Positions 1 through 31,283 of a stretch of 64,000 nt of DNA are shown here, in pieces. The notes below the pieces were generated by a model, which was not told where the DNA came from, made no database searches, and was given only the letters and a program-made list of their open reading frames with translations. How positions within the stretch are numbered: the first letter of the stretch is position 1; each line of letters begins with the position of its first letter. The position numbers and the translations under genes are program-made. The stretch is from assembly GCA_016700035.1 (NCBI GenBank), contig CP064998.1:199021-263020 (forward strand), written 5' to 3'. This DNA is from a bacterium. GTDB lineage: Bacteria; Patescibacteriota; Saccharimonadia; CAILAD01; GCA-016700035.

Positions 1-3062
<3,062 letters not shown>

Positions 3063-3200: not shown

Positions 3201-4631
3201 ATGCCTGAGGAAAGAAAGAAACAAGCTATTAGAACAAAGCACTGGTTTTTAGTGCTTTTGCCTCTGTTTATCTTATTACTTTTAAATGCATGGGCTGCAG
3301 TTTTTGTTGAGGGTGTGATATATCCTGGCGTTAAAGTTGCGGGACAAGATGTTTCGGGGCTAACACGCCAGCAGGCGATATCTTTTTTGCAGTCCAAGCC
3401 ACTTGGCAAACAGGTTAAGCTGAATGTTGGTGGACAAGAATTTGTGGCTAGCAACGAGGAAATTGGTGCGCGCTATGATGTACCGGCTACGGTTGAGCTA
3501 GCCTATCAAAAGGGTCGTCAGTATAAGTTGCCAATTATAGGTATTATTGACTCGATGCGCACCCATCATGATATTGGTTATGCTTTTGAATTGGATTATC
3601 GTAAGCTGAGTGCTTTTACGAACCAGATAGTTGAGAAGGTTGGACAGCCAGCTAAAAATGCCTCACTAGTTATTGAAAATGGTCAAGCTACAATTCAGCC
3701 CGATATTAATGGGCTGGGCCTTGATAAGATGCGAGTAACTCAGCTTGTATCTGGTGCTTTGGCTACTGCACAAGATGGTAATTTTACTCTAGATACAGAG
3801 CCGGTTGAGGCTTCAATTAGAGCCACTGCGGTAGAGTCGACTAAATCTGAGGCGGAGGTATTGTTACAACGCTCGATTCGATTAACATATAATGATCGAG
3901 TTTTTCAGCCCAGTGCTGTTAATATTGGCTATTGGATTGTGACGCAACCAAATGATGAGGTGAACCCCAGTAAATTACAGGTGCAAATTTCGGAGGCGCA
4001 AGTTAAGGGCTATGTGCAGTCGGTGGCTAATGAAATTGATAAGGCACCTGTAAATAAAAAAGTAGTGGTTAAAAATGGTGTTTCGTCAGTTGAGCGTGAA
4101 GGTCAAGATGGAGTTGCTCTCAATCAGGATATGGTGACAAGCACTATTGTGCAAGCCATGCGTGAAAATCGAGATACTGATATTGTATTACAAACCAGTC
4201 CAGTAGCTTTTAAGACCGAAACTATTAGGACGACTAGCTTAGATGCGGCAAAATATATTGAAATTAACTTGTCGCGACAGTATATGTGGGCCTATGAGAA
4301 TGGTCAGGTGGTTCACTCAGCGCCGATTACAAGTGGTGCTACAGGCGCTGGATTAGGAACGGTGACGGGACTATTTGCAATTTATTCTAAGGGTACTAAT
4401 ACTTACTTAAACGGCGCACAGTATGGGTATAACTATAACGTATTTGTTAACTATTGGATGCCCTTCTTTAAGGGGTATGGCTTGCATGACGCCAGTTGGC
4501 GCAATGGTCGGTTTGGTGGTCAGGATTATTATTATAATGGGTCACATGGGTGCGTTAATCTGCCAGCTGGTACGGCGGCCTTTATCTATTCGTGGTCGGA
4601 TATTGGTACGCCAGTATGGGTGCATAACTAA
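3201..4631 (+). CDS. Membrane-anchored L,D-transpeptidase (YkuD domain) family protein
   Basis: Basic N-terminus plus TM helix. C-terminal YkuD catalytic motif (HDASW...GSHGCVNLP) with conserved His and Cys. Confidence 0.75.
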   Translation: MPEERKKQAIRTKHWFLVLLPLFILLLLNAWAAVFVEGVIYPGVKVAGQDVSGLTRQQAISFLQSKPLGKQVKLNVGGQEFVASNEEIGARYDVPATVELAYQKGRQYKLPIIGIIDSMRTHHDIGYAFELDYRKLSAFTNQIVEKVGQPAKNASLVIENGQATIQPDINGLGLDKMRVTQLVSGALATAQDGNFTLDTEPVEASIRATAVESTKSEAEVLLQRSIRLTYNDRVFQPSAVNIGYWIVTQPNDEVNPSKLQVQISEAQVKGYVQSVANEIDKAPVNKKVVVKNGVSSVEREGQDGVALNQDMVTSTIVQAMRENRDTDIVLQTSPVAFKTETIRTTSLDAAKYIEINLSRQYMWAYENGQVVHSAPITSGATGAGLGTVTGLFAIYSKGTNTYLNGAQYGYNYNVFVNYWMPFFKGYGLHDASWRNGRFGGQDYYYNGSHGCVNLPAGTAAFIYSWSDIGTPVWVHN

Positions 4632-4689
4632 TACCAATAGCTATTTTACAATGCAGAGGTGATAAAAAACCTCTATAATCATAAGCAAC

Positions 4690-9133: not shown

Positions 9134-9728
9134 AAAGATTAATCAAAATCCCGAGCGTGAGTCTGGAGCAAAGCATGAAAAGCTGGACTTAAAGGTTGAT
9201 AAGTCAGCCGAATCTCATAAGCCATTAGAGCAAAAATCAGAAACAGCACACGAGCGCGAGAAGTCAGCCGAGCAAACACGCGAGAAGATTGAAAAATCAC
9301 TTGATAAAGAAGCTGATAAAGCGCGCGAGAAACAACCTAAAACAACTGAGGTGCGTGAACCGCAGGTAGTTACCAGGGGCGCTCGAGATGCGGCATATCG
9401 TTCCACCATGCAGACTGTGCGATCTCAACTTACGCCGGTGCAACGTAATTTTTCTAAATTTATTCACGCTAAACCAGTTGAGGTAACAAGTGAATTGTTG
9501 GAAGAAACAATATTTCGCCCTAGCTTTTTGTGGGGTGGCGTGATCGGTGGGATCTTGATGGGTGCGAGCTTGTATATATTCTCCTATATACAAGGCTTTA
9601 AGTTGTCGGGTTCAGAATTTATTGTAGGGTTATTGATTGGTGGAGTTTTGGGGGTTTTAGCAGAAAAGCTATTTCGGCATAAGAAAACTACCAAAGGCCC
9701 GAACGCAAAGACTACTCACAAGAAATAG
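9126..9728 (+). CDS. Lys/Glu-rich protein with two C-terminal TM helices (hypothetical)
   Basis: Charged low-complexity N-terminal half. Hydrophobic segments GGVIGGILMGASLYIF and IVGLLIGGVLGVL. 8-nt overlap with the upstream gene. Confidence 0.45.
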   Translation: MSEKINQNPERESGAKHEKLDLKVDKSAESHKPLEQKSETAHEREKSAEQTREKIEKSLDKEADKAREKQPKTTEVREPQVVTRGARDAAYRSTMQTVRSQLTPVQRNFSKFIHAKPVEVTSELLEETIFRPSFLWGGVIGGILMGASLYIFSYIQGFKLSGSEFIVGLLIGGVLGVLAEKLFRHKKTTKGPNAKTTHKK

Positions 9729-16222: not shown

Positions 16223-16346
16223 AACTTTAAATTTTGTATTTAAACTTTTTTATGTTCGTATAACAGGATTAAAAGCTACGCATTTGGTTGTATCGTTCTA
16301 ATGTGTAGCTAAACTTTAACGATATAATATACTTTTGTATGTTGTG

Positions 16347-17866
<1,520 letters not shown>

Positions 17867-18084
17867 AGGGAGAAAGCTTACTGGCAACAGTACCAGTACT
17901 ATAAGTACTGGCGTTACGGTATGAAATGTGGTTATCGAGCTGCTTAGTGTCTTTAGATACTAGGAAGTGCTCACCAAAAATCTTCATATCGAATGGCTAT
18001 CCTAGGTCGACTTTTCACGAATCTTTATTTTTGTGAAAATAGCCTGTTATACACATAGCTAAGAACTTACTTTGTTTAGAGTTC

Positions 18085-18106
18085 AAACTGGCACAGGTAA
18101 CTTGTG
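18085..18106 (+). other. 16S trailer half of the processing stem
   Basis: Complementary to leader 16201-16222. Confidence 0.55.
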
Positions 18107-18112
18107 AAATTA

Positions 18113-18142
18113 ATAAAAAACTCCCTATCCTGGGAGTTTTTT
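18113..18142. terminator. Bidirectional rho-independent terminator (A-run, GC hairpin, T-run)
   Basis: aaaaaaCTCCCtatccTGGGAGtttttt. Ends the 16S precursor on the + strand and the convergent minus-strand gene 18158-18421. Confidence 0.55.
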
Positions 18143-18157
18143 AGTGTGATAATAAGA

Positions 18158-18421
18158 TTATTTATTCAGTTCAGCGCCAGTCAGGCCTTTTACACTATCG
18201 GCAATTGGTTGGGTGAGCCAACTCCAAATGCCAAAGATCATACCAAGACCAAAGATTACGAGCACTACCCCAAGAATACGAATAAAAGCTGGTGTACCAG
18301 CAGTTACTAAGCGCTCGACAAAATCTATTGCACCGGTAAAGTTATAAATATTACGCCAAAACTTCAGCATTGTAAGACCTACGGTCATTAGAAAAATTCC
18401 AAAGAAAATATTAAAAAGCAT
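18158..18421 (-). CDS. Small membrane protein (hypothetical, two TM helices)
   Basis: 87-aa ORF with two hydrophobic helices. Terminator immediately downstream. Confidence 0.45.
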   Translation of the reverse strand: MLFNIFFGIFLMTVGLTMLKFWRNIYNFTGAIDFVERLVTAGTPAFIRILGVVLVIFGLGMIFGIWSWLTQPIADSVKGLTGAELNK

Positions 18422-18715
18422 ACAGACAGTATAGCAAAAAAATAACTTCTATGATTTGCTGATGGGTCGTCCAGATTAGATTGATATGAATATTTGGGCC
18501 ACGCTATAGATAACTTGCCTTAGCGGGTCATGATAGGATAGTTGGTTGAGTGCTAGTACTGTTGGAAGAGATATCGAAAGGGCAATTTGTGTCAGTACTG
18601 CGCTTCCTAGTCTTGGCGTGTTTGATAGGCTGTAGTTGTATATATCGTGAGCATATAGCCTTAGCTAGTATTATCACGATCATTGCAATCTACAGAGATT
18701 AAAGCAAAGAAGTTA

Positions 18716-20167
18716 TTAGAACCCATTGTTATTTGGTTTAATATGGCATAGCCATATTTTTAGGCCAATACCGACCAATCCAAGTAGAAACAGAACATAA
18801 GTCAACGATAAGTATAGTTTAATGTTGTCTCCGGTATCGGCGAGTTGGCCATGAGTGGTGTTTGACACTGGAGGGTCTATAGGGTCTGGGATTGGAGGTA
18901 TATACTCATAAGCGCCAGAATCATAACCTGAGCCTTGTGGCCTGGCTATACCCCGCTGGTCAGTAGTGAGACTATTAGTCACGCCGGCATCAATAGCTGC
19001 AGAGTTTTCTAATAATGCGATCGTTTGGATAGTGCCACCATTGTCTTGTAGTGGACCCAAGCTAGATGATAATCCAACAATCTCAGCCTGATCGGTTGGG
19101 TGATTAAGCTCTGATGTAGCTGTTGCGTCAGTTATATTCCCACCCAAAGAGGCTGAGGTGGCTGATTCAGTGCCTCCAGCGTTAGGCTCAAACTCCGCAT
19201 TAAAAACATCAAGGTTTACACCTAAAATATTTTGGAAATCAATTGATGATGCTGCCGAAGCACCAGGGGTTGCTAAGCTTGCCGACAAGATACCGCTCCC
19301 GGTTACGCCGACTTGAGGGTTGCCAATTATAGTTATATTGCGAGCTGTGACATTTACTTCTCCATCACCACCAGACAAAGAATCGGCAATTGCAGAAATA
19401 TAGCTAATACTATATCCATTTGTAGCTGTCACGTCAGTTATAGTTATATTTTCGGCTAGACCACTAGTATGACCCCCTGCTCGAGAATAGAAGCAAACAA
19501 GTAAAACGGAGTCATTTTTTGTCCCTTCTACATTAGTGATAGTTGTACGCCTAACTATATTGCCAGATGTAGTTGCCCCATTGCTAGTTATAAAAATTGC
19601 ACTACTCTCAAAGATAATATCATGGATATAGATATCTTCTATAGTACTCGAAATACCATTCATCCACGCAGAGACTTCAATCATGGAGCTATCTACAGAT
19701 TGGGCTACATCAGCATAAACCTCGACGCGCCTAATTGTCATGGAGTAATTAAAGGTATTTATTGCGCCGTAGTCATTAATTAATATACTATTCGGATTTT
19801 TAATTGTGACGTCTTGTACGGTAGCTTGTTGAGGGGTAATATTTGGGTTATTGAAACTTAAGCCACCGTTATTACCTTGGGCATCGATGATAGTTTGTCC
19901 CATACCGGCACCCTGTACGGTTAGAGGTACGGTAATTACGTTTGTATTTGCATAGTTGAAAGTACCAGCCGATAAGCTGATAGTATCGTTACTTCCGTAA
20001 GTGCCAGAAGCTGTACACCCACCTTGATTGCTAGCCGAGTTCATGGATAAAATTGCATTATCTAGAGTGCATCCTGGACTCACGTTAATTGTCGCAGCCG
20101 AAGCTTTATTTGGCGCAAAAATAAATGTTATTGATAAGGCTACAATCAATAACAACAAATACTTCAT
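18716..20167 (-). CDS. Secreted beta-helix-like surface protein with LAxTG-type sortase sorting signal
   Basis: Signal peptide MKYLLLLIVALSITFIFAPNKASA (the ORF may start at 20227). Asn/Gly/Thr-rich repeats suggest a parallel beta-helix. C-terminal LADTG, hydrophobic helix and KIWLCHIK tail. Confidence 0.55.
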   Translation of the reverse strand: MKYLLLLIVALSITFIFAPNKASAATINVSPGCTLDNAILSMNSASNQGGCTASGTYGSNDTISLSAGTFNYANTNVITVPLTVQGAGMGQTIIDAQGNNGGLSFNNPNITPQQATVQDVTIKNPNSILINDYGAINTFNYSMTIRRVEVYADVAQSVDSSMIEVSAWMNGISSTIEDIYIHDIIFESSAIFITSNGATTSGNIVRRTTITNVEGTKNDSVLLVCFYSRAGGHTSGLAENITITDVTATNGYSISYISAIADSLSGGDGEVNVTARNITIIGNPQVGVTGSGILSASLATPGASAASSIDFQNILGVNLDVFNAEFEPNAGGTESATSASLGGNITDATATSELNHPTDQAEIVGLSSSLGPLQDNGGTIQTIALLENSAAIDAGVTNSLTTDQRGIARPQGSGYDSGAYEYIPPIPDPIDPPVSNTTHGQLADTGDNIKLYLSLTYVLFLLGLVGIGLKIWLCHIKPNNNGF

Positions 20168-20671
20168 TCTAGGTCGTATTAGAAGAATATGGATTGACAT
20201 CAATATCTTGTTTTCGGCTTTTCTCACGTTATTTATTTTAACATAAGCAAGTTATTTAGATGAAAGAAGCGTGATATATTTATGCAGCATTCTTGTTTAG
20301 CCAAGAATGCTCAAATTAGATTATTGTCGACCCTTTCGGCACTTCTTGGTCGAAAATTTAAGCGGGTTTGATGAGGCGGGGTGGTTTTATCTTTTAAGGT
20401 GAATTACAGAATAGTATATTTTATTATTTACTAATTGTGTATCTATACTCTAGTTGGAGCTTATTTTATATATAATCTTGAAATTTTTCATGGTTAGTTT
20501 TGCCGAGCTATGTACGGCATGAACAATAAAATAAGCTTCCATCATTTGGTGGAGGTTGATAGTCCAATTTAGGGTTAAAAAGTTTTTCTCTCCTTGCCAA
20601 GCTCGCCATTTCAGTGTAAAAATCCAAATCATCGCCCTTCTGGGTGATTTTTTTGTTAAAAATCTCAATCT

Positions 20672-20713
20672 TGGTGGGCTTGGCAGGACTCAGAGCCGGA
20701 CCTCGTCATTATT
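20672..20713 (-). pseudogene. Degenerate copy of the tRNA-Ile 3' half
   Basis: tggtgggcttggcaggactc...gacctcgtcattat matches the 3' portion of the adjacent tRNA-Ile with an internal substitution block. Confidence 0.45.
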
Positions 20714-20752
20714 TGGCTGAGGCCAAGTACAGTAATGTTTTTTCTCTCAGCT

Positions 20753-20830
20753 GGTGGGCTTGGCAGGACTCGAACCTGCGACCTCGTCATTATCAGTGAC
20801 GCGCTCTAACCAGCTGAGCTACAAGCCCAC
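20753..20830 (-). tRNA. tRNA-Ile (anticodon GAT), CCA encoded
   Basis: Reverse complement folds as a cloverleaf. Anticodon loop cuGAUaa. Close match to bacterial tRNA-Ile(GAU). Confidence 0.9.
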
Positions 20831-20863
20831 AGCTGAGAGAAAAAGTTGTATAGATGCCGTGAA

Positions 20864-20895
20864 CAGTGACGCGCTCTAACTAACTTAGGCTACAA
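20864..20895 (-). pseudogene. Degenerate copy of the tRNA-Ile 5' half
   Basis: cagtgacgcgctctaac is identical to the tRNA-Ile D/anticodon-arm region, then diverges. Confidence 0.4.
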
Positions 20896-21243
20896 TTCCG
20901 GGATATAATTGTGGTGGAACATATACCTTGTAAAATTTCGACTTATGCTCGGAACGAGTCCCTGCGCGCAAGTCATGTTAGCAGATCCGAACCGAAAGGT
21001 TTAAGCCTTCATCGGTTCTGTCTGGCGGAGCATGTACTTCGTGAAACTTCGGTCTATGCTCGAAGCAAGCTTCTGCGCGTAGACCTTGTTTGCGGATAGC
21101 GGCTTACGCCTTCTCCTTGTGGTGCTCGACAAGATATACAGTAAGCTGATATCTTGGTCTGCGCTCCTCATGCGCCGAACCTTCGGCTCAATGCAGATTT
21201 TAGTCCACCACTCTGTAAGTATATATTGCATATACCCACAGAG

Positions 21244-21320
21244 TGGTGGAGCATATCGGATTCGAACCGATGACCCCCTGCTTGCAAAGCAGGTGCTCTA
21301 GCCAGCTGAGCTAATGCCCC
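21244..21320 (-). tRNA. tRNA-Ala (anticodon TGC), CCA encoded, G3:U70 present
   Basis: Reverse complement ggggcattagctcagctggctagagcacctgctttgcaagcagg...tgctccacca. Anticodon UGC. Confidence 0.9.
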
Positions 21321-21339
21321 ATATTGGGTGTTTTTTATT

Positions 21340-21430
21340 GATTGTCAATTATCAAAGTACGGAGACTTAATCTACGGGGCTAGAGCACATTCTGTAAGTG
21401 CGATTTACGCCACTGATAGCCAGCTTTAGC
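21340..21430. pseudogene. Inverted degenerate fragments of the tRNA-Ala 5' region
   Basis: ggggctagagcac and agccagctttagctaatgccc resemble the tRNA-Ala D-arm/acceptor in opposite orientations. Confidence 0.35.
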
Positions 21431-21619
21431 TAATGCCCTATAAGTATCAATATATTTTACTGTTAATATGTTTTAAATAACTACTATTAGTTGATATTTT
21501 CATAAAACATAATAACTGGCCTATTGTACACTTTTACTCAAGAAAAGACAACAGGAGAGGGCGGTCATTTGCGATGGACAAGCACAACTATTTTAGGCAC
21601 AATAAGATAGTACAAGCAT

Positions 21620-22090
21620 ATGCATAATAATCAGCCAATACAGCCTGGATCTTTGGTGCTGCCAAAGTCTGCTTCGAACACAAACGAAGGCGGACAAGGT
21701 GGTGCTTTGCCTGTAATTACGCCGACACCTCAACTAGCAGTTATTGCATCTAATACGCCAACTGTGGATGGTCAGTCGATGGTTAAATTGAGGGGGCAAG
21801 CTGGTTTGAGTATGGATAGCACAAGTGCAGAGACTGGTGGCTTAGATTTTAGTGACACAAAGGTAGTAGATCCAGCTATACTGGCTCAGCCAGCACCAGC
21901 ACCAGCACCAGCACCAGCACCAGCACCAGCACCAGCACCAGCACCAGCACCAGCACCAGCACCAGCACCAGCACCAGCACCAGCACCAGCACCAGCACCA
22001 GCACCAGCACCAGCACCAGCACCAGCACCAGCACCAGCACCAGCACCAGCACCAGCACCAGCACCAGCACCAGCACCAGCATATAGTTAA
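21620..22090 (+). CDS. Pro-Ala dipeptide-repeat protein (hypothetical)
   Basis: ORF ending in (PA)32 encoded by a hexanucleotide microsatellite. No TM or signal. May be the 5' part of a gene split from 22146-22733. Confidence 0.45.
   Translation: MHNNQPIQPGSLVLPKSASNTNEGGQGGALPVITPTPQLAVIASNTPTVDGQSMVKLRGQAGLSMDSTSAETGGLDFSDTKVVDPAILAQPAPAPAPAPAPAPAPAPAPAPAPAPAPAPAPAPAPAPAPAPAPAPAPAPAPAPAPAPAPAPAPAYS
21890..22081 (+). repeat. (CCAGCA)32 perfect tandem hexanucleotide repeat
   Basis: Seen directly. 192 nt with no interruptions. Confidence 0.95.
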
Positions 22091-27543: not shown

Positions 27544-27798
27544 ATTGAGGCACTAAAGCGAGGACAGCCACACGTGAGTAGACAACAAAACCTAGGAGAA
27601 ACCACCGGTTAATCAGAGTTTGTTGGAATTTCACGCGTGGTTGTCTCCGGTAGATACCACGCTTTTTTGTATCGAACGTTCACAACTTCATACTTACGAG
27701 AAAAAAGGGTAACAAATATTGCTTTCTTTCTTAGGGATGATTAGACAAAGCTTGTAAGAGGTGTGTCAATCACTCTCTTATAAAAAAGAGAAGAAAAA

Positions 27799-30985
<3,187 letters not shown>

Positions 30986-31174
30986 TTCGTGGTTTACTTG
31001 ATCATTTTTTGTGATTAGGTAAACCGATTTTTGACAAGATGAGTGCTTGGCACGCTTTTTACAAGCTAAAAATCTCTAAGAAATCTTTAAAGAAAGCAAA
31101 GTGCCTTTAATCGTAAGTATGAATGACTTCCATTGTGAGCGTCGGTCTTTCGGGCTTTAGAGCTTGAGAGACCG

Positions 31175-31283
31175 GTGCTTATGGCGGAGGGGCCACACCT
31201 GTTCCCATACCGAACACAGCAGTTAAGCCCTCCTGCGGCGATGATACTGGTAACCCCGGGAAAGTAGCGCAGTGCCGGATTGG
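31175..31283 (+). rRNA. rrf: 5S ribosomal RNA
   Basis: GCTTATGGCGGAGGGGCCACACCTGTTCCCATACCGAACACAG...GGGAAAGTAGCGCAGTGCC. Confidence 0.85.

Follow-up and report, generated by a model that had tools for sequence, protein, structure and literature searches.

An apparently independent tRNA-Ala/tRNA-Ile operon between the unlinked rRNA genes of a Saccharibacterium, with a tRNA-Ile gene nested in its own pseudogene

We analysed a stretch of 64,000 nucleotides from a bacterium of the Saccharimonadia (assembly GCA_016700035.1, contig CP064998.1, positions 199,021 to 263,020; hereafter the window), which carries a tRNA-Ala/tRNA-Ile pair between its 16S and 23S rRNA genes, together with a series of partial copies of both tRNAs. 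The UppS protein encoded in the window has homologues named Candidatus Saccharibacteria. Searches with ARAGORN and Rfam found only two tRNA genes in the 64 kb, tRNA-Ile(gat) and tRNA-Ala(tgc). As an earlier note on this DNA had claimed, both lie between 16S and 23S on the strand opposite to the rRNA genes and are transcribed in the order Ala then Ile; the gap between them measures 415 nt (20829-21243), where about 410 nt had been given. The coordinates of all the features are collected in Table 1.

The window was compared with loci of related genomes, which are given here as L numbers. A scan of GTDB, with one genome per species and a 42-nt core of tRNA-Ile as query, returned 17 loci, mostly titled Saccharibacteria, Saccharimonadia or Saccharimonadales, the rest carrying general titles ("bacterium", "Patescibacteria group") and one being titled Candidatus Nanoarchaeia. 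Relatives were also collected through the UppS, ferric reductase and DUF212 genes. Most of these contigs stop before the tRNAs (L001-L004, L006-L008, L026, L028, L031-L041), and those informative at the tRNAs are L005, L029, L030 and part of L027. L030 is the sister of the window (16S identity 99.5%), L005 shares 97.0% of its 16S, and L029 is more distant. Of the 18 comparison loci, 16 carry a tRNA-Ile identical over all 77 nt, namely L005 and all but two of the 17 from GTDB.

The intact tRNA-Ile gene is bracketed by the two halves of a second, decayed tRNA-Ile. The earlier note had described both, and they proved to lie well beyond chance: the 3' half aligns to tRNA-Ile with a score of 61 against a maximum of 25 in 300 shuffles, its two exact blocks having E values of 3.5e-6 and 0.013 against the whole window, and the 5' half, which reaches 20899 and so slightly beyond the 20895 first claimed, aligns with a score of 45, again against a shuffle maximum of 25. 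The outer 5' half terminates in ...GTCACTG (...GCGCGTCACTG), and the outer 3' half opens with ATAATGAC... (ATAATGACGAGG...). When joined, they restore a complete anticodon arm, with the break between G34 and A35 in standard numbering (35/36 in linear numbering), zero overlap and zero gap. The 151-nt insert between them consists of the normal tRNA-Ile gene plus its own flanks, so that the outer halves stand 35 and 39 nt away from the intact gene. Neither a target-site duplication nor a core repeated at the two junctions was found, which counts against transposases, with their usual target-site duplication, and against integrases, with their duplicated crossover core. Moreover, no further significant copy of the tRNA pieces is present in the 64 kb, and the att-like repeats that the earlier note had proposed to search for are thus missing from the window. 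The locus is a clear example of a tRNA gene that sits within the anticodon of a pseudogene of itself, with the hallmarks of neither integrase nor transposase.

The nesting is shared, in part, with relatives. In L005 and L029, orthologous outer 5' halves break within the anticodon loop, that of L029 at the same base (...CACTG). The outer 3' half is decayed in L005 and is not statistically supported in L029, where the outer 5' half resembles an Ala/Ile chimera. The inner leader and trailer have their orthologues in L030, L013 and L014, where outer halves are missing; the inner cassette is thus the resident gene of the clade. In L005, the outer 3' end runs into TGGCTT, which resembles the inner trailer. 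This is a hint that flanks of the same kind once surrounded the outer gene, so that both genes may descend from a duplication.

The flanks of the working tRNA-Ile form a helix: 13 leader bases (TTTTTCTCTCAGC) pair with 13 trailer bases (GCUGAGAGAAAAA), giving a duplex of -20.2 kcal/mol that none of 500 shuffles reached. A leader/trailer duplex, in each case reached by 0/500 shuffles, is present in 9 of 19 loci (the window, L030, L005, L029, L013, L014, L020, L022 and L023). The sequences of the helix are unrelated between clades (TTTTTCTCTCAGC/GCTGAGAGAAAAA in the window vs CAAAAAGCCA/TGGCTTTTTG in L005), and the pairing is thus kept by covariation across the nine loci. The leader/trailer helix is a feature of the lineage.

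The spacer between tRNA-Ala and tRNA-Ile is built of several modules, which are, in the sense of transcription, a hairpin, a structured module (module ii), and two units (U1 and U2) separated by a linker. The proposal that the 3' end of tRNA-Ala pairs with downstream sequence was borne out, with arms of 21 nt that are 90% complementary. In L005 the helix of this hairpin survives one two-sided and two one-sided changes, and L029 has a hairpin that also pairs the CCA end, with a different stem sequence. The 3' part of module ii is common to L010 (z 7-9; covariance-model match with E 0.0017). U1 and U2, of 63 nt each, are paralogous: they share a 57-nt gapless alignment with a score of 50, which 0/500 shuffles reach. 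The U2 hairpin shows one compensatory pair, U-A in the window vs C-G in L005, and the 14-mer ACGCGCAGAAGCTT of U1 occurs exactly in L010. The spacer as a whole folds much better than shuffled sequence (z -5.3), and no Rfam family was found for it, either at gathering thresholds or at E<=10. The bodies of U1 and U2 and module ii have no significant similarity to the tRNA-Ala of the window, to which the 3' tails alone are similar; we do not claim, for this reason, that the whole spacer is a decayed tRNA-Ala. The tRNA models detected no tRNA-like fold in the spacer pieces, which carry 3'-terminus copies in the units and one T-arm-like piece. Extra intact tRNAs, which would have spoken against the fragments described by the earlier note, were not called at E<=10 in 17800-21700 or in 20600-21560, so the pieces are fragments.

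Upstream of tRNA-Ala, a leader element is composed of tRNA-Ala pieces. The earlier note had seen here inverted fragments of the tRNA-Ala 5' region; the pieces do exist (21376-21438), but only 21376-21389 is inverted, whereas 21417-21438 is on the same strand, and both lie upstream, rather than downstream, in the sense of transcription. The latter piece carries the 5' acceptor strand GGGGCAU, which matches the tRNA-Ala terminus. Within the window, both pieces match tRNA-Ala at just 11/11 (E about 0.8-1.8). The element is kept in L030, L005 and L029; L005 has it in two tandem copies (9157-9219 and 9275-9336, ~118 nt apart), one of which matches at 21/21 (E 2e-6). Its identity to L005 compares with a shuffle level of 0.50, its predicted fold is weak (-13 kcal/mol), and there are few covarying pairs.

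The stretch between the leader element and the candidate promoter is AT-rich. The promoter core GTGTACAATAGGCCAGTT, or a close variant, stands upstream of tRNA-Ala in L030, L005, L012, L013, L014, L027 and L029, and both L005 and L030 have clear terminators at the position equivalent to the 20618-20648 hairpin of the window. Taken together, these features suggest that the Ala/Ile pair is an operon on its own, directed away from 23S, whose putative transcript of ~0.9 kb would consist largely of tRNA-derived modules. The 16S has a terminator of its own downstream, which implies that it would be transcribed separately.

Table 1. Features of the tRNA-Ala/tRNA-Ile locus and its rRNA context, with identity to the L005 ortholog
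Feature	Position	Strand	Evidence and remarks	Identity, window vs L005
16S rRNA	16344-17864	+	Rfam	
Two-way intrinsic terminator, ~250 nt past 16S	18114-18143	.	12-bp stem, T runs on both sides	
Terminator-like hairpin (ATCACCC-AGAA-GGGCGAT) with U-rich tail, probable operon end	20618-20648	-	Listed as a plus-strand palindrome; minus reading from the sequence	
Decayed 3' half of second tRNA-Ile, A35 to CCA	20672-20712	-	Exact blocks 20/20 and 14/14	
Trailer (y) of working tRNA-Ile	20713-20751	-	20739-20751 is the 3' strand of the helix; orthologous to L030 trailer	47%
tRNA-Ile(GAU), intact	20752-20828	-	ARAGORN; Rfam tRNA model 76.5 bits	
Leader (x) of working tRNA-Ile	20829-20863	-	20832-20844 is the 5' strand of the helix; orthologous to L030 leader	47%
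Decayed 5' half of second tRNA-Ile, ends at G34	20864-20899	-	17/17 exact block, E 2e-4	68%
Unit U2: hairpin, linker, tRNA-Ala 3'-terminus copy (ATATGTTCCACCA)	20912-20974	-	Paralogue of U1	72% (with T-arm-like piece)
Linker with T-arm-like piece (CGATG...TCGGTTCGGATCTG)	20975-21022	-	L005 ortholog matches tRNA-Ala 49-64 at 16/16	72% (T-arm-like piece plus U2)
Unit U1: 35-nt hairpin, linker, tRNA-Ala 3'-terminus copy (ATGCTCCGCCA)	21023-21085	-	Paralogue of U2	
Module ii, structured, 111 nt	21093-21203	-	No indel between window and L005	89% (99/111)
Hairpin pairing tRNA-Ala 3' end (UCCACCA) with downstream sequence	21204-21250	-	Arms 21204-21224 and 21230-21250; dG -35.8 kcal/mol	85%
tRNA-Ala(UGC), intact	21244-21320	-	ARAGORN; Rfam tRNA model 70.2 bits	
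Leader element from tRNA-Ala pieces	21376-21438	-	21417-21438 is same-strand tRNA-Ala positions 2-22; small variable hairpin; 21376-21389 is inverted D-arm region	77%
Sigma-70-type promoter (TTGTCT, 17 nt, TACAAT)	21523-21551	-	Consensus scan, 9/12 matches	
23S rRNA	27794-30987	+	Rfam	
5S rRNA	31171-31280	+	Rfam	

The distance between 16S and 23S is 9.9 kb, with intervening genes on both strands. It exceeds the gap of ~2 kb beyond which rRNA genes of the Candidate Phyla Radiation (CPR) are considered unlinked, and the genes are unable to share one transcript, as that definition also asks (PMC8172020). Ile(GAU) and Ala(UGC) are still found between 16S and 23S; in the window they are not arranged on the rRNA strand, in one transcript and in Ile-then-Ala order, as they are in L010, L022, L024 and L025. 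In these four loci, 16S, Ile and Ala stand in this canonical layout on one strand. In L011, L019 and L023, the pair is flipped as a block. In L013, L014, L029, L030, L005 and the window, the order is swapped, with Ala then Ile running opposite to the rRNA genes; L012 has the same Ala-then-Ile order, seen without rRNA context. The synteny comparison makes plausible the linked 16S-Ile-Ala spacer that the earlier note had supposed as ancestor, and the sequences support well both an ancestral linked operon and a repeated rearrangement of the region. As for the inversion and duplication from which the note derived the present state, local duplication is evident (U1/U2, the L005 leader copies, and the tRNA-Ala pair of L015 described below), but a single, simple inversion cannot yield the Ala-then-Ile order of the window.

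The extras derived from tRNAs are limited to part of the order-swapped clade. L005 has all of them, in the same layout as the window. L029 has the leader element, the CCA-pairing hairpin and the outer 5' half, whereas L013 and L014 have only the helix. In L030, the promoter and the leader element are followed by tRNA-Ala, a gap of 33 nt, tRNA-Ile with its helix, and the terminator.

The genes in the 16S-23S interval encode a choice-of-anchor Q surface protein, a Pro-Ala repeat protein, a ferric-reductase-like protein, a dienelactone hydrolase, UppS and an fn3-domain protein, and searches of Pfam, PHROGs and NCBIfam found no integrase, transposase or phage family among the open reading frames (ORFs) between 16S and 23S. 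The choice-of-anchor Q protein (503 aa, 18716-20227(-)) adjoins the tRNA operon; L030 does not have it and carries a 162-aa ORF on the other strand at that place, and a scan of the GTDB genomes found no relatives of the 503-aa ORF. Look-ups of identical proteins, made for this ORF and for UppS, likewise gave no entry. About 33 tandem CCAGCA hexamers (21878-22081, within the ORF 21620-22090 on the plus strand) encode (Pro-Ala)n. The contigs of L026, L038 and L041 end in the equivalent ORF position beside the ferric reductase gene, and the repeat perhaps defeats assembly. A block of ~10 kb (with TatA, TatC, a HATPase_c protein, DUF5907 and others) stands between UppS and the dienelactone hydrolase in L001 (10705-20468) and also in L002, L026 and L027; it is missing from the window and from L030. 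The 23S gene measures 3194 nt against the 2925 positions of the Rfam model, which gives ~270 nt of insertions, and it is likewise long in L001, L011 and L029 (3182-3249 nt).

The conservation between the window and L005 differs strongly from one part of the locus to another. Third codon positions are near saturation (45% identical in UppS, 36% in the DUF212 gene), and the linkers are at the level of shuffled sequence, with an identity of 52% for the rest of the leader and the values of Table 1 for x and y, against shuffled means of 0.42-0.49. The modules stand at 68-89%. All the 47 predicted pairs of the hairpin plus module ii (A2) are kept in both genomes; in two of them both bases differ, and in five a single base differs, by way of G-U. 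Read from the opposite strand, such G-U pairs would turn into A-C mismatches, so the pattern is consistent with an RNA transcribed in the direction of the tRNAs. The covariation between the two sequences is not significant (112/500 shuffles equal it), in a test that has no power, and this modelled preservation of base pairs is suggestive only. Sequence comparison nevertheless leads us to conclude that at least some of the modules are under constraint.

A related element was found at a greater distance. In L010, which is distant and has the canonical order, it follows tRNA-Ala (~4019-4116(-), 98 nt) and lies between two terminators. It shares GGAGAAGG(G)CG..CCGCTATCC with the window (z 7-9), and at its 3' end it repeats the terminus of the tRNA-Ala of L010 itself, which differs from that of the window. 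The fold is a three-way junction closed by GGUGGAGC/GCUCCACC (dG -51.9 kcal/mol, z -4.5). Scans of metagenomes, with a module ii pattern and with a pattern of the 5' half plus the intact tRNA-Ile, returned nothing; L005 itself was unmatched, so the collection evidently does not contain the clade. Two scans of viral contigs gave no match.

The Ile/Ala region of other loci shows further peculiarities. L015 has two tandem tRNA-Ala(UGC) genes of differing sequence after tRNA-Ile (1627-1794(-)), which is direct evidence of tandem tRNA-Ala duplication in the phylum. In the 427-nt Ile-Ala spacer of L010 there is an intact gene for a 115-aa GIY-YIG nuclease (4261-4608(-), Pfam E 2e-16), which overlaps the start of tRNA-Ala. 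This suggests that nuclease genes visit the region in the phylum and that double-strand breaks are a plausible trigger of rearrangement; no nuclease gene of this kind is present in the window. In L021, a 212-aa ORF (811-1449(+)) occupies most of the 973-nt Ile-Ala spacer. Directly after tRNA-Ile, L010 (~4650-4689(-)) and L016 (397-436(+)) have a minihelix of ~40 nt (GGGGATTCGACTGGG...GTCGGTCTCCACCA). An ACCA end and a G3:U70-type pair give it the look of an acceptor minihelix of the alanine type.

We propose that the pair represents the former spacer tRNAs of a Saccharibacterium (TM7, CPR) whose rRNA operon came apart. Both genes and their flanks would have undergone local duplications with break points in tRNA loops, and one tRNA-Ile cassette would have landed in the anticodon loop of another copy without target-site duplication. 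This nesting could have arisen by a single insertion of a tRNA-Ile cassette into the anticodon loop of a duplicate, or by two template switches that shared the apex of the anticodon hairpin; site-specific integration is not a likely route. The modules would then have been kept for a role in cis, in the folding or processing of the precursor RNA. Double-strand-specific nucleases such as RNase III may enter at the leader/trailer helix and at the CCA-pairing hairpin, as they do at rRNA processing stems, and the tRNA-like pieces may give extra entry or stop points for RNase P and the 3' trimming enzymes. As to maintenance, conservation is far higher in the modules than in the linkers and at silent codon positions, and the predicted helices survive every substitution seen, so that this step can be regarded as partly shown, as far as sequence comparison reaches. 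We consider the account as a whole, from the detached spacer pair through the duplications to the modules kept in cis, to be probable, if not by much. Three features had escaped the earlier note, namely how exactly the tRNA-Ile is nested, its leader/trailer helix, and the fact that the spacer is conserved between species.

Several points weigh against this account. The sister L030 does without the spacer and both halves; the modules are thus dispensable, which argues against an important role. The constraint is read from very few genomes, namely the window and L005, with L029 and L010 in part, and the predicted structure was derived from the same two sequences on which it is judged. The exact blocks shared by the outer halves and the intact gene could reflect gene conversion instead of selection, an explanation that cannot extend to module ii, which has no donor. 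Of the 12 sites at which module ii differs between the window and L005, eight are third positions of the ORF 21001-21231(-), as a small protein would have it. The promoter and the terminator are consensus matches only, and no processing enzyme, cleavage site or transcript was observed.

A rival idea is that the pieces are pure debris, that is, leftovers of tandem and nested duplications that gene conversion from the intact neighbours keeps tRNA-like and that otherwise decay slowly. Prokaryote genomes commonly contain partial copies of tRNAs (PMC9897764), no piece of the locus is called as a tRNA, and the state of L030 is what debris would allow. In addition, the outer halves show exact blocks of 14-20 nt beside scrambled ones, and the window and L005 share no derived changes, as patchy conversion predicts. 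Module ii fits this idea poorly: it is unlike tRNA-Ala and so is not open to conversion, yet it is 89% identical without an indel where linkers and third positions are saturated. The related element in the distant L010, and the fact that every substitution inside a predicted helix keeps pairing, also oppose debris, which we regard as unlikely.

A further possibility is that the modules constitute a new family of functional RNA in the Saccharimonadia, which would include module ii, the units ending in ...AUGCUCCACCA, the GGGGCAU leader piece and the L010 element. They could be CCA-ended mini-RNAs, or decoys or guides for RNase P, the 3' trimming enzymes, the CCA-adding enzyme or AlaRS, and the halves would have been kept likewise. 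We consider this unlikely.

A separate gene in the spacer would also account for part of the conservation. Module ii, alone or together with U1 and U2, would then represent either a small RNA acting in trans or the coding sequence of a small basic protein (the 76-aa product of the ORF 21001-21231(-)), and the tRNA context would be incidental. Module ii is indeed strongly conserved without an indel, the ORF is open in L005 too and collects the third-position differences mentioned above, and the L010 element lies between two terminators with a tight fold. The third-position excess, however, is not significant once corrected for the choice of frame and is gone once the hairpin is included. L005 has a stop codon at the start codon of the window, the C-terminal parts differ, and the stretch shared with L010 contains a 1-nt indel. 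A HMMER search of 1.84 billion representatives found no protein homologue, its one match, to a 1511-aa repeat protein, being spurious, and no minus-strand promoter of its own was found inside the spacer. Such a gene is, in our judgement, clearly improbable.

The earlier note had suggested that tRNA 3' ends acted as recombination or integration sites, and the halves could accordingly be read as scars of integration, i.e. attachment (att) sites of a phage or integrative element that has since been deleted. Anticodon loops are a known crossover site of tRNA-targeting integrases (Williams 2002, as reported in PMC9897764), the process leaves partial tRNA copies (PMC9897764), and a start within the anticodon loop, as the outer 3' half has it, is what an attR would show. 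But the break of tRNA-Ile is at anticodon positions 34/35 and not at the 3' end, there is a 5' half with a complementary break on the other side, and no duplicated core is found at the junctions. The 35 and 39 nt that separate the halves from the gene are its own leader and trailer, orthologous to those of L030. There is no island that direct repeats could bound and no integrase or recombinase gene beside the site; between 16S and 23S no integrase, transposase or phage gene is present, no distant repeat exists in the 64 kb, and no viral contig matched. Moreover, the layout recurs in L005 and the 5' half in L029. The suggestion about tRNA 3' ends was not supported, and integration scars, being largely refuted, are very improbable.

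Finally, a working split or intron-containing tRNA, in which the outer halves would be the exons and the inner tRNA the intervening sequence, has almost nothing to commend it beyond the exact break in the anticodon loop, the outer anticodon stem that can still pair and, in L005, the full complementarity of the outer acceptor strands: the outer acceptor stem of the window has 2 mismatches in 7 pairs, the T and D arms are scrambled, the minimum-energy fold does not pair the halves with each other, ARAGORN and Infernal call no such gene, no intron family appears at E<=10, the insert is an ordinary tRNA gene with flanks, L030 is without the halves, and splicing at 34/35 would need a ligase pathway that, to our knowledge, is not known for bacterial tRNAs. 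A tmRNA (transfer-messenger RNA), considered for the GCUCCACCA ends, was discarded, as ARAGORN finds none and the Rfam tmRNA families are unmatched.

Turning back to the detached spacer pair and its modules, the closest analogies seem to be the 3'-end copies of Escherichia coli tyrT and the tRNA pseudogenes of chloroplast break points. Downstream of tyrT there are repeats that carry the last 19 nt of tRNA-Tyr. Like these, the units of the window are tandem elements after a tRNA gene, each ending in a 3'-terminus copy including CCA; unlike them, they bear hairpins, are shared between species, and lie between two tRNA genes of one operon. Signals that imitate tRNAs to direct processing are also known, such as the t-elements of plant mitochondria and the tRNA-like structure before archaeal 5S rRNA. 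The pieces of the window would be similar in being tRNA-imitating parts of a longer transcript that could guide RNase P or RNase Z, but the tRNA models detect no tRNA-like fold in them. As in the rRNA processing stems cut by RNase III, a long leader-trailer helix of a stable RNA covaries between genomes, with the difference that the helix of the window encloses a tRNA, has just 13-17 bp plus the 7-bp acceptor stem, and is a putative site of cleavage.

In chloroplast genomes, according to the account of Hiratsuka et al. 1989 given in PMC12371153, chimeric tRNA pseudogenes stand at inversion end points. There too, as that account describes it, tRNA genes appear as substrates of illegitimate recombination that reorders a conserved block and leaves pseudogene pieces at the break points; the window is bacterial, its pieces are nested or tandem instead of lying at the two ends of one inversion, and several of them are conserved above the neutral level. 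The att-type partial tRNAs of the literature (Williams 2002; van der Gulik et al. 2023, PMC9897764) resemble those of the window in that partial copies stand beside an intact gene, one of them starting in the anticodon loop. They differ from the 5' and 3' halves with complementary ends found here, which are 35-39 nt from the gene and conserved in layout across species.

Unlinked rRNA genes are known in CPR bacteria, as stated in PMC8172020 and by Brewer et al. 2020, cited there. The window agrees with those cases in its ~10 kb between 16S and 23S, in the opposite strand of some intervening genes, and in the terminator that 16S has here on its own. The two Saccharimonadia genomes of Lui et al. 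2021 (PMC8172020) are operonic, whereas the window and several of its relatives are unlinked. In the window, the spacer tRNAs form a separate, opposite operon in Ala-then-Ile order, a fate that we did not find described in the literature examined on unlinked rRNA genes.

The locus thus bears on what becomes of the spacer tRNAs once a CPR rRNA operon is dismantled: they seem to survive as an operon of their own, and the relatives display canonical, inverted and order-swapped states. The nesting, in turn, bears on tRNA loops as break points. Fragments of this type can mislead both the annotation of tRNAs and the prediction of att sites. The conservation of the modules greatly exceeds the neutral level, and this in a lineage of very small genomes, where the persistence of junk is unexpected; if they are functional, they would represent a new class of tRNA-derived elements acting in cis or in trans.

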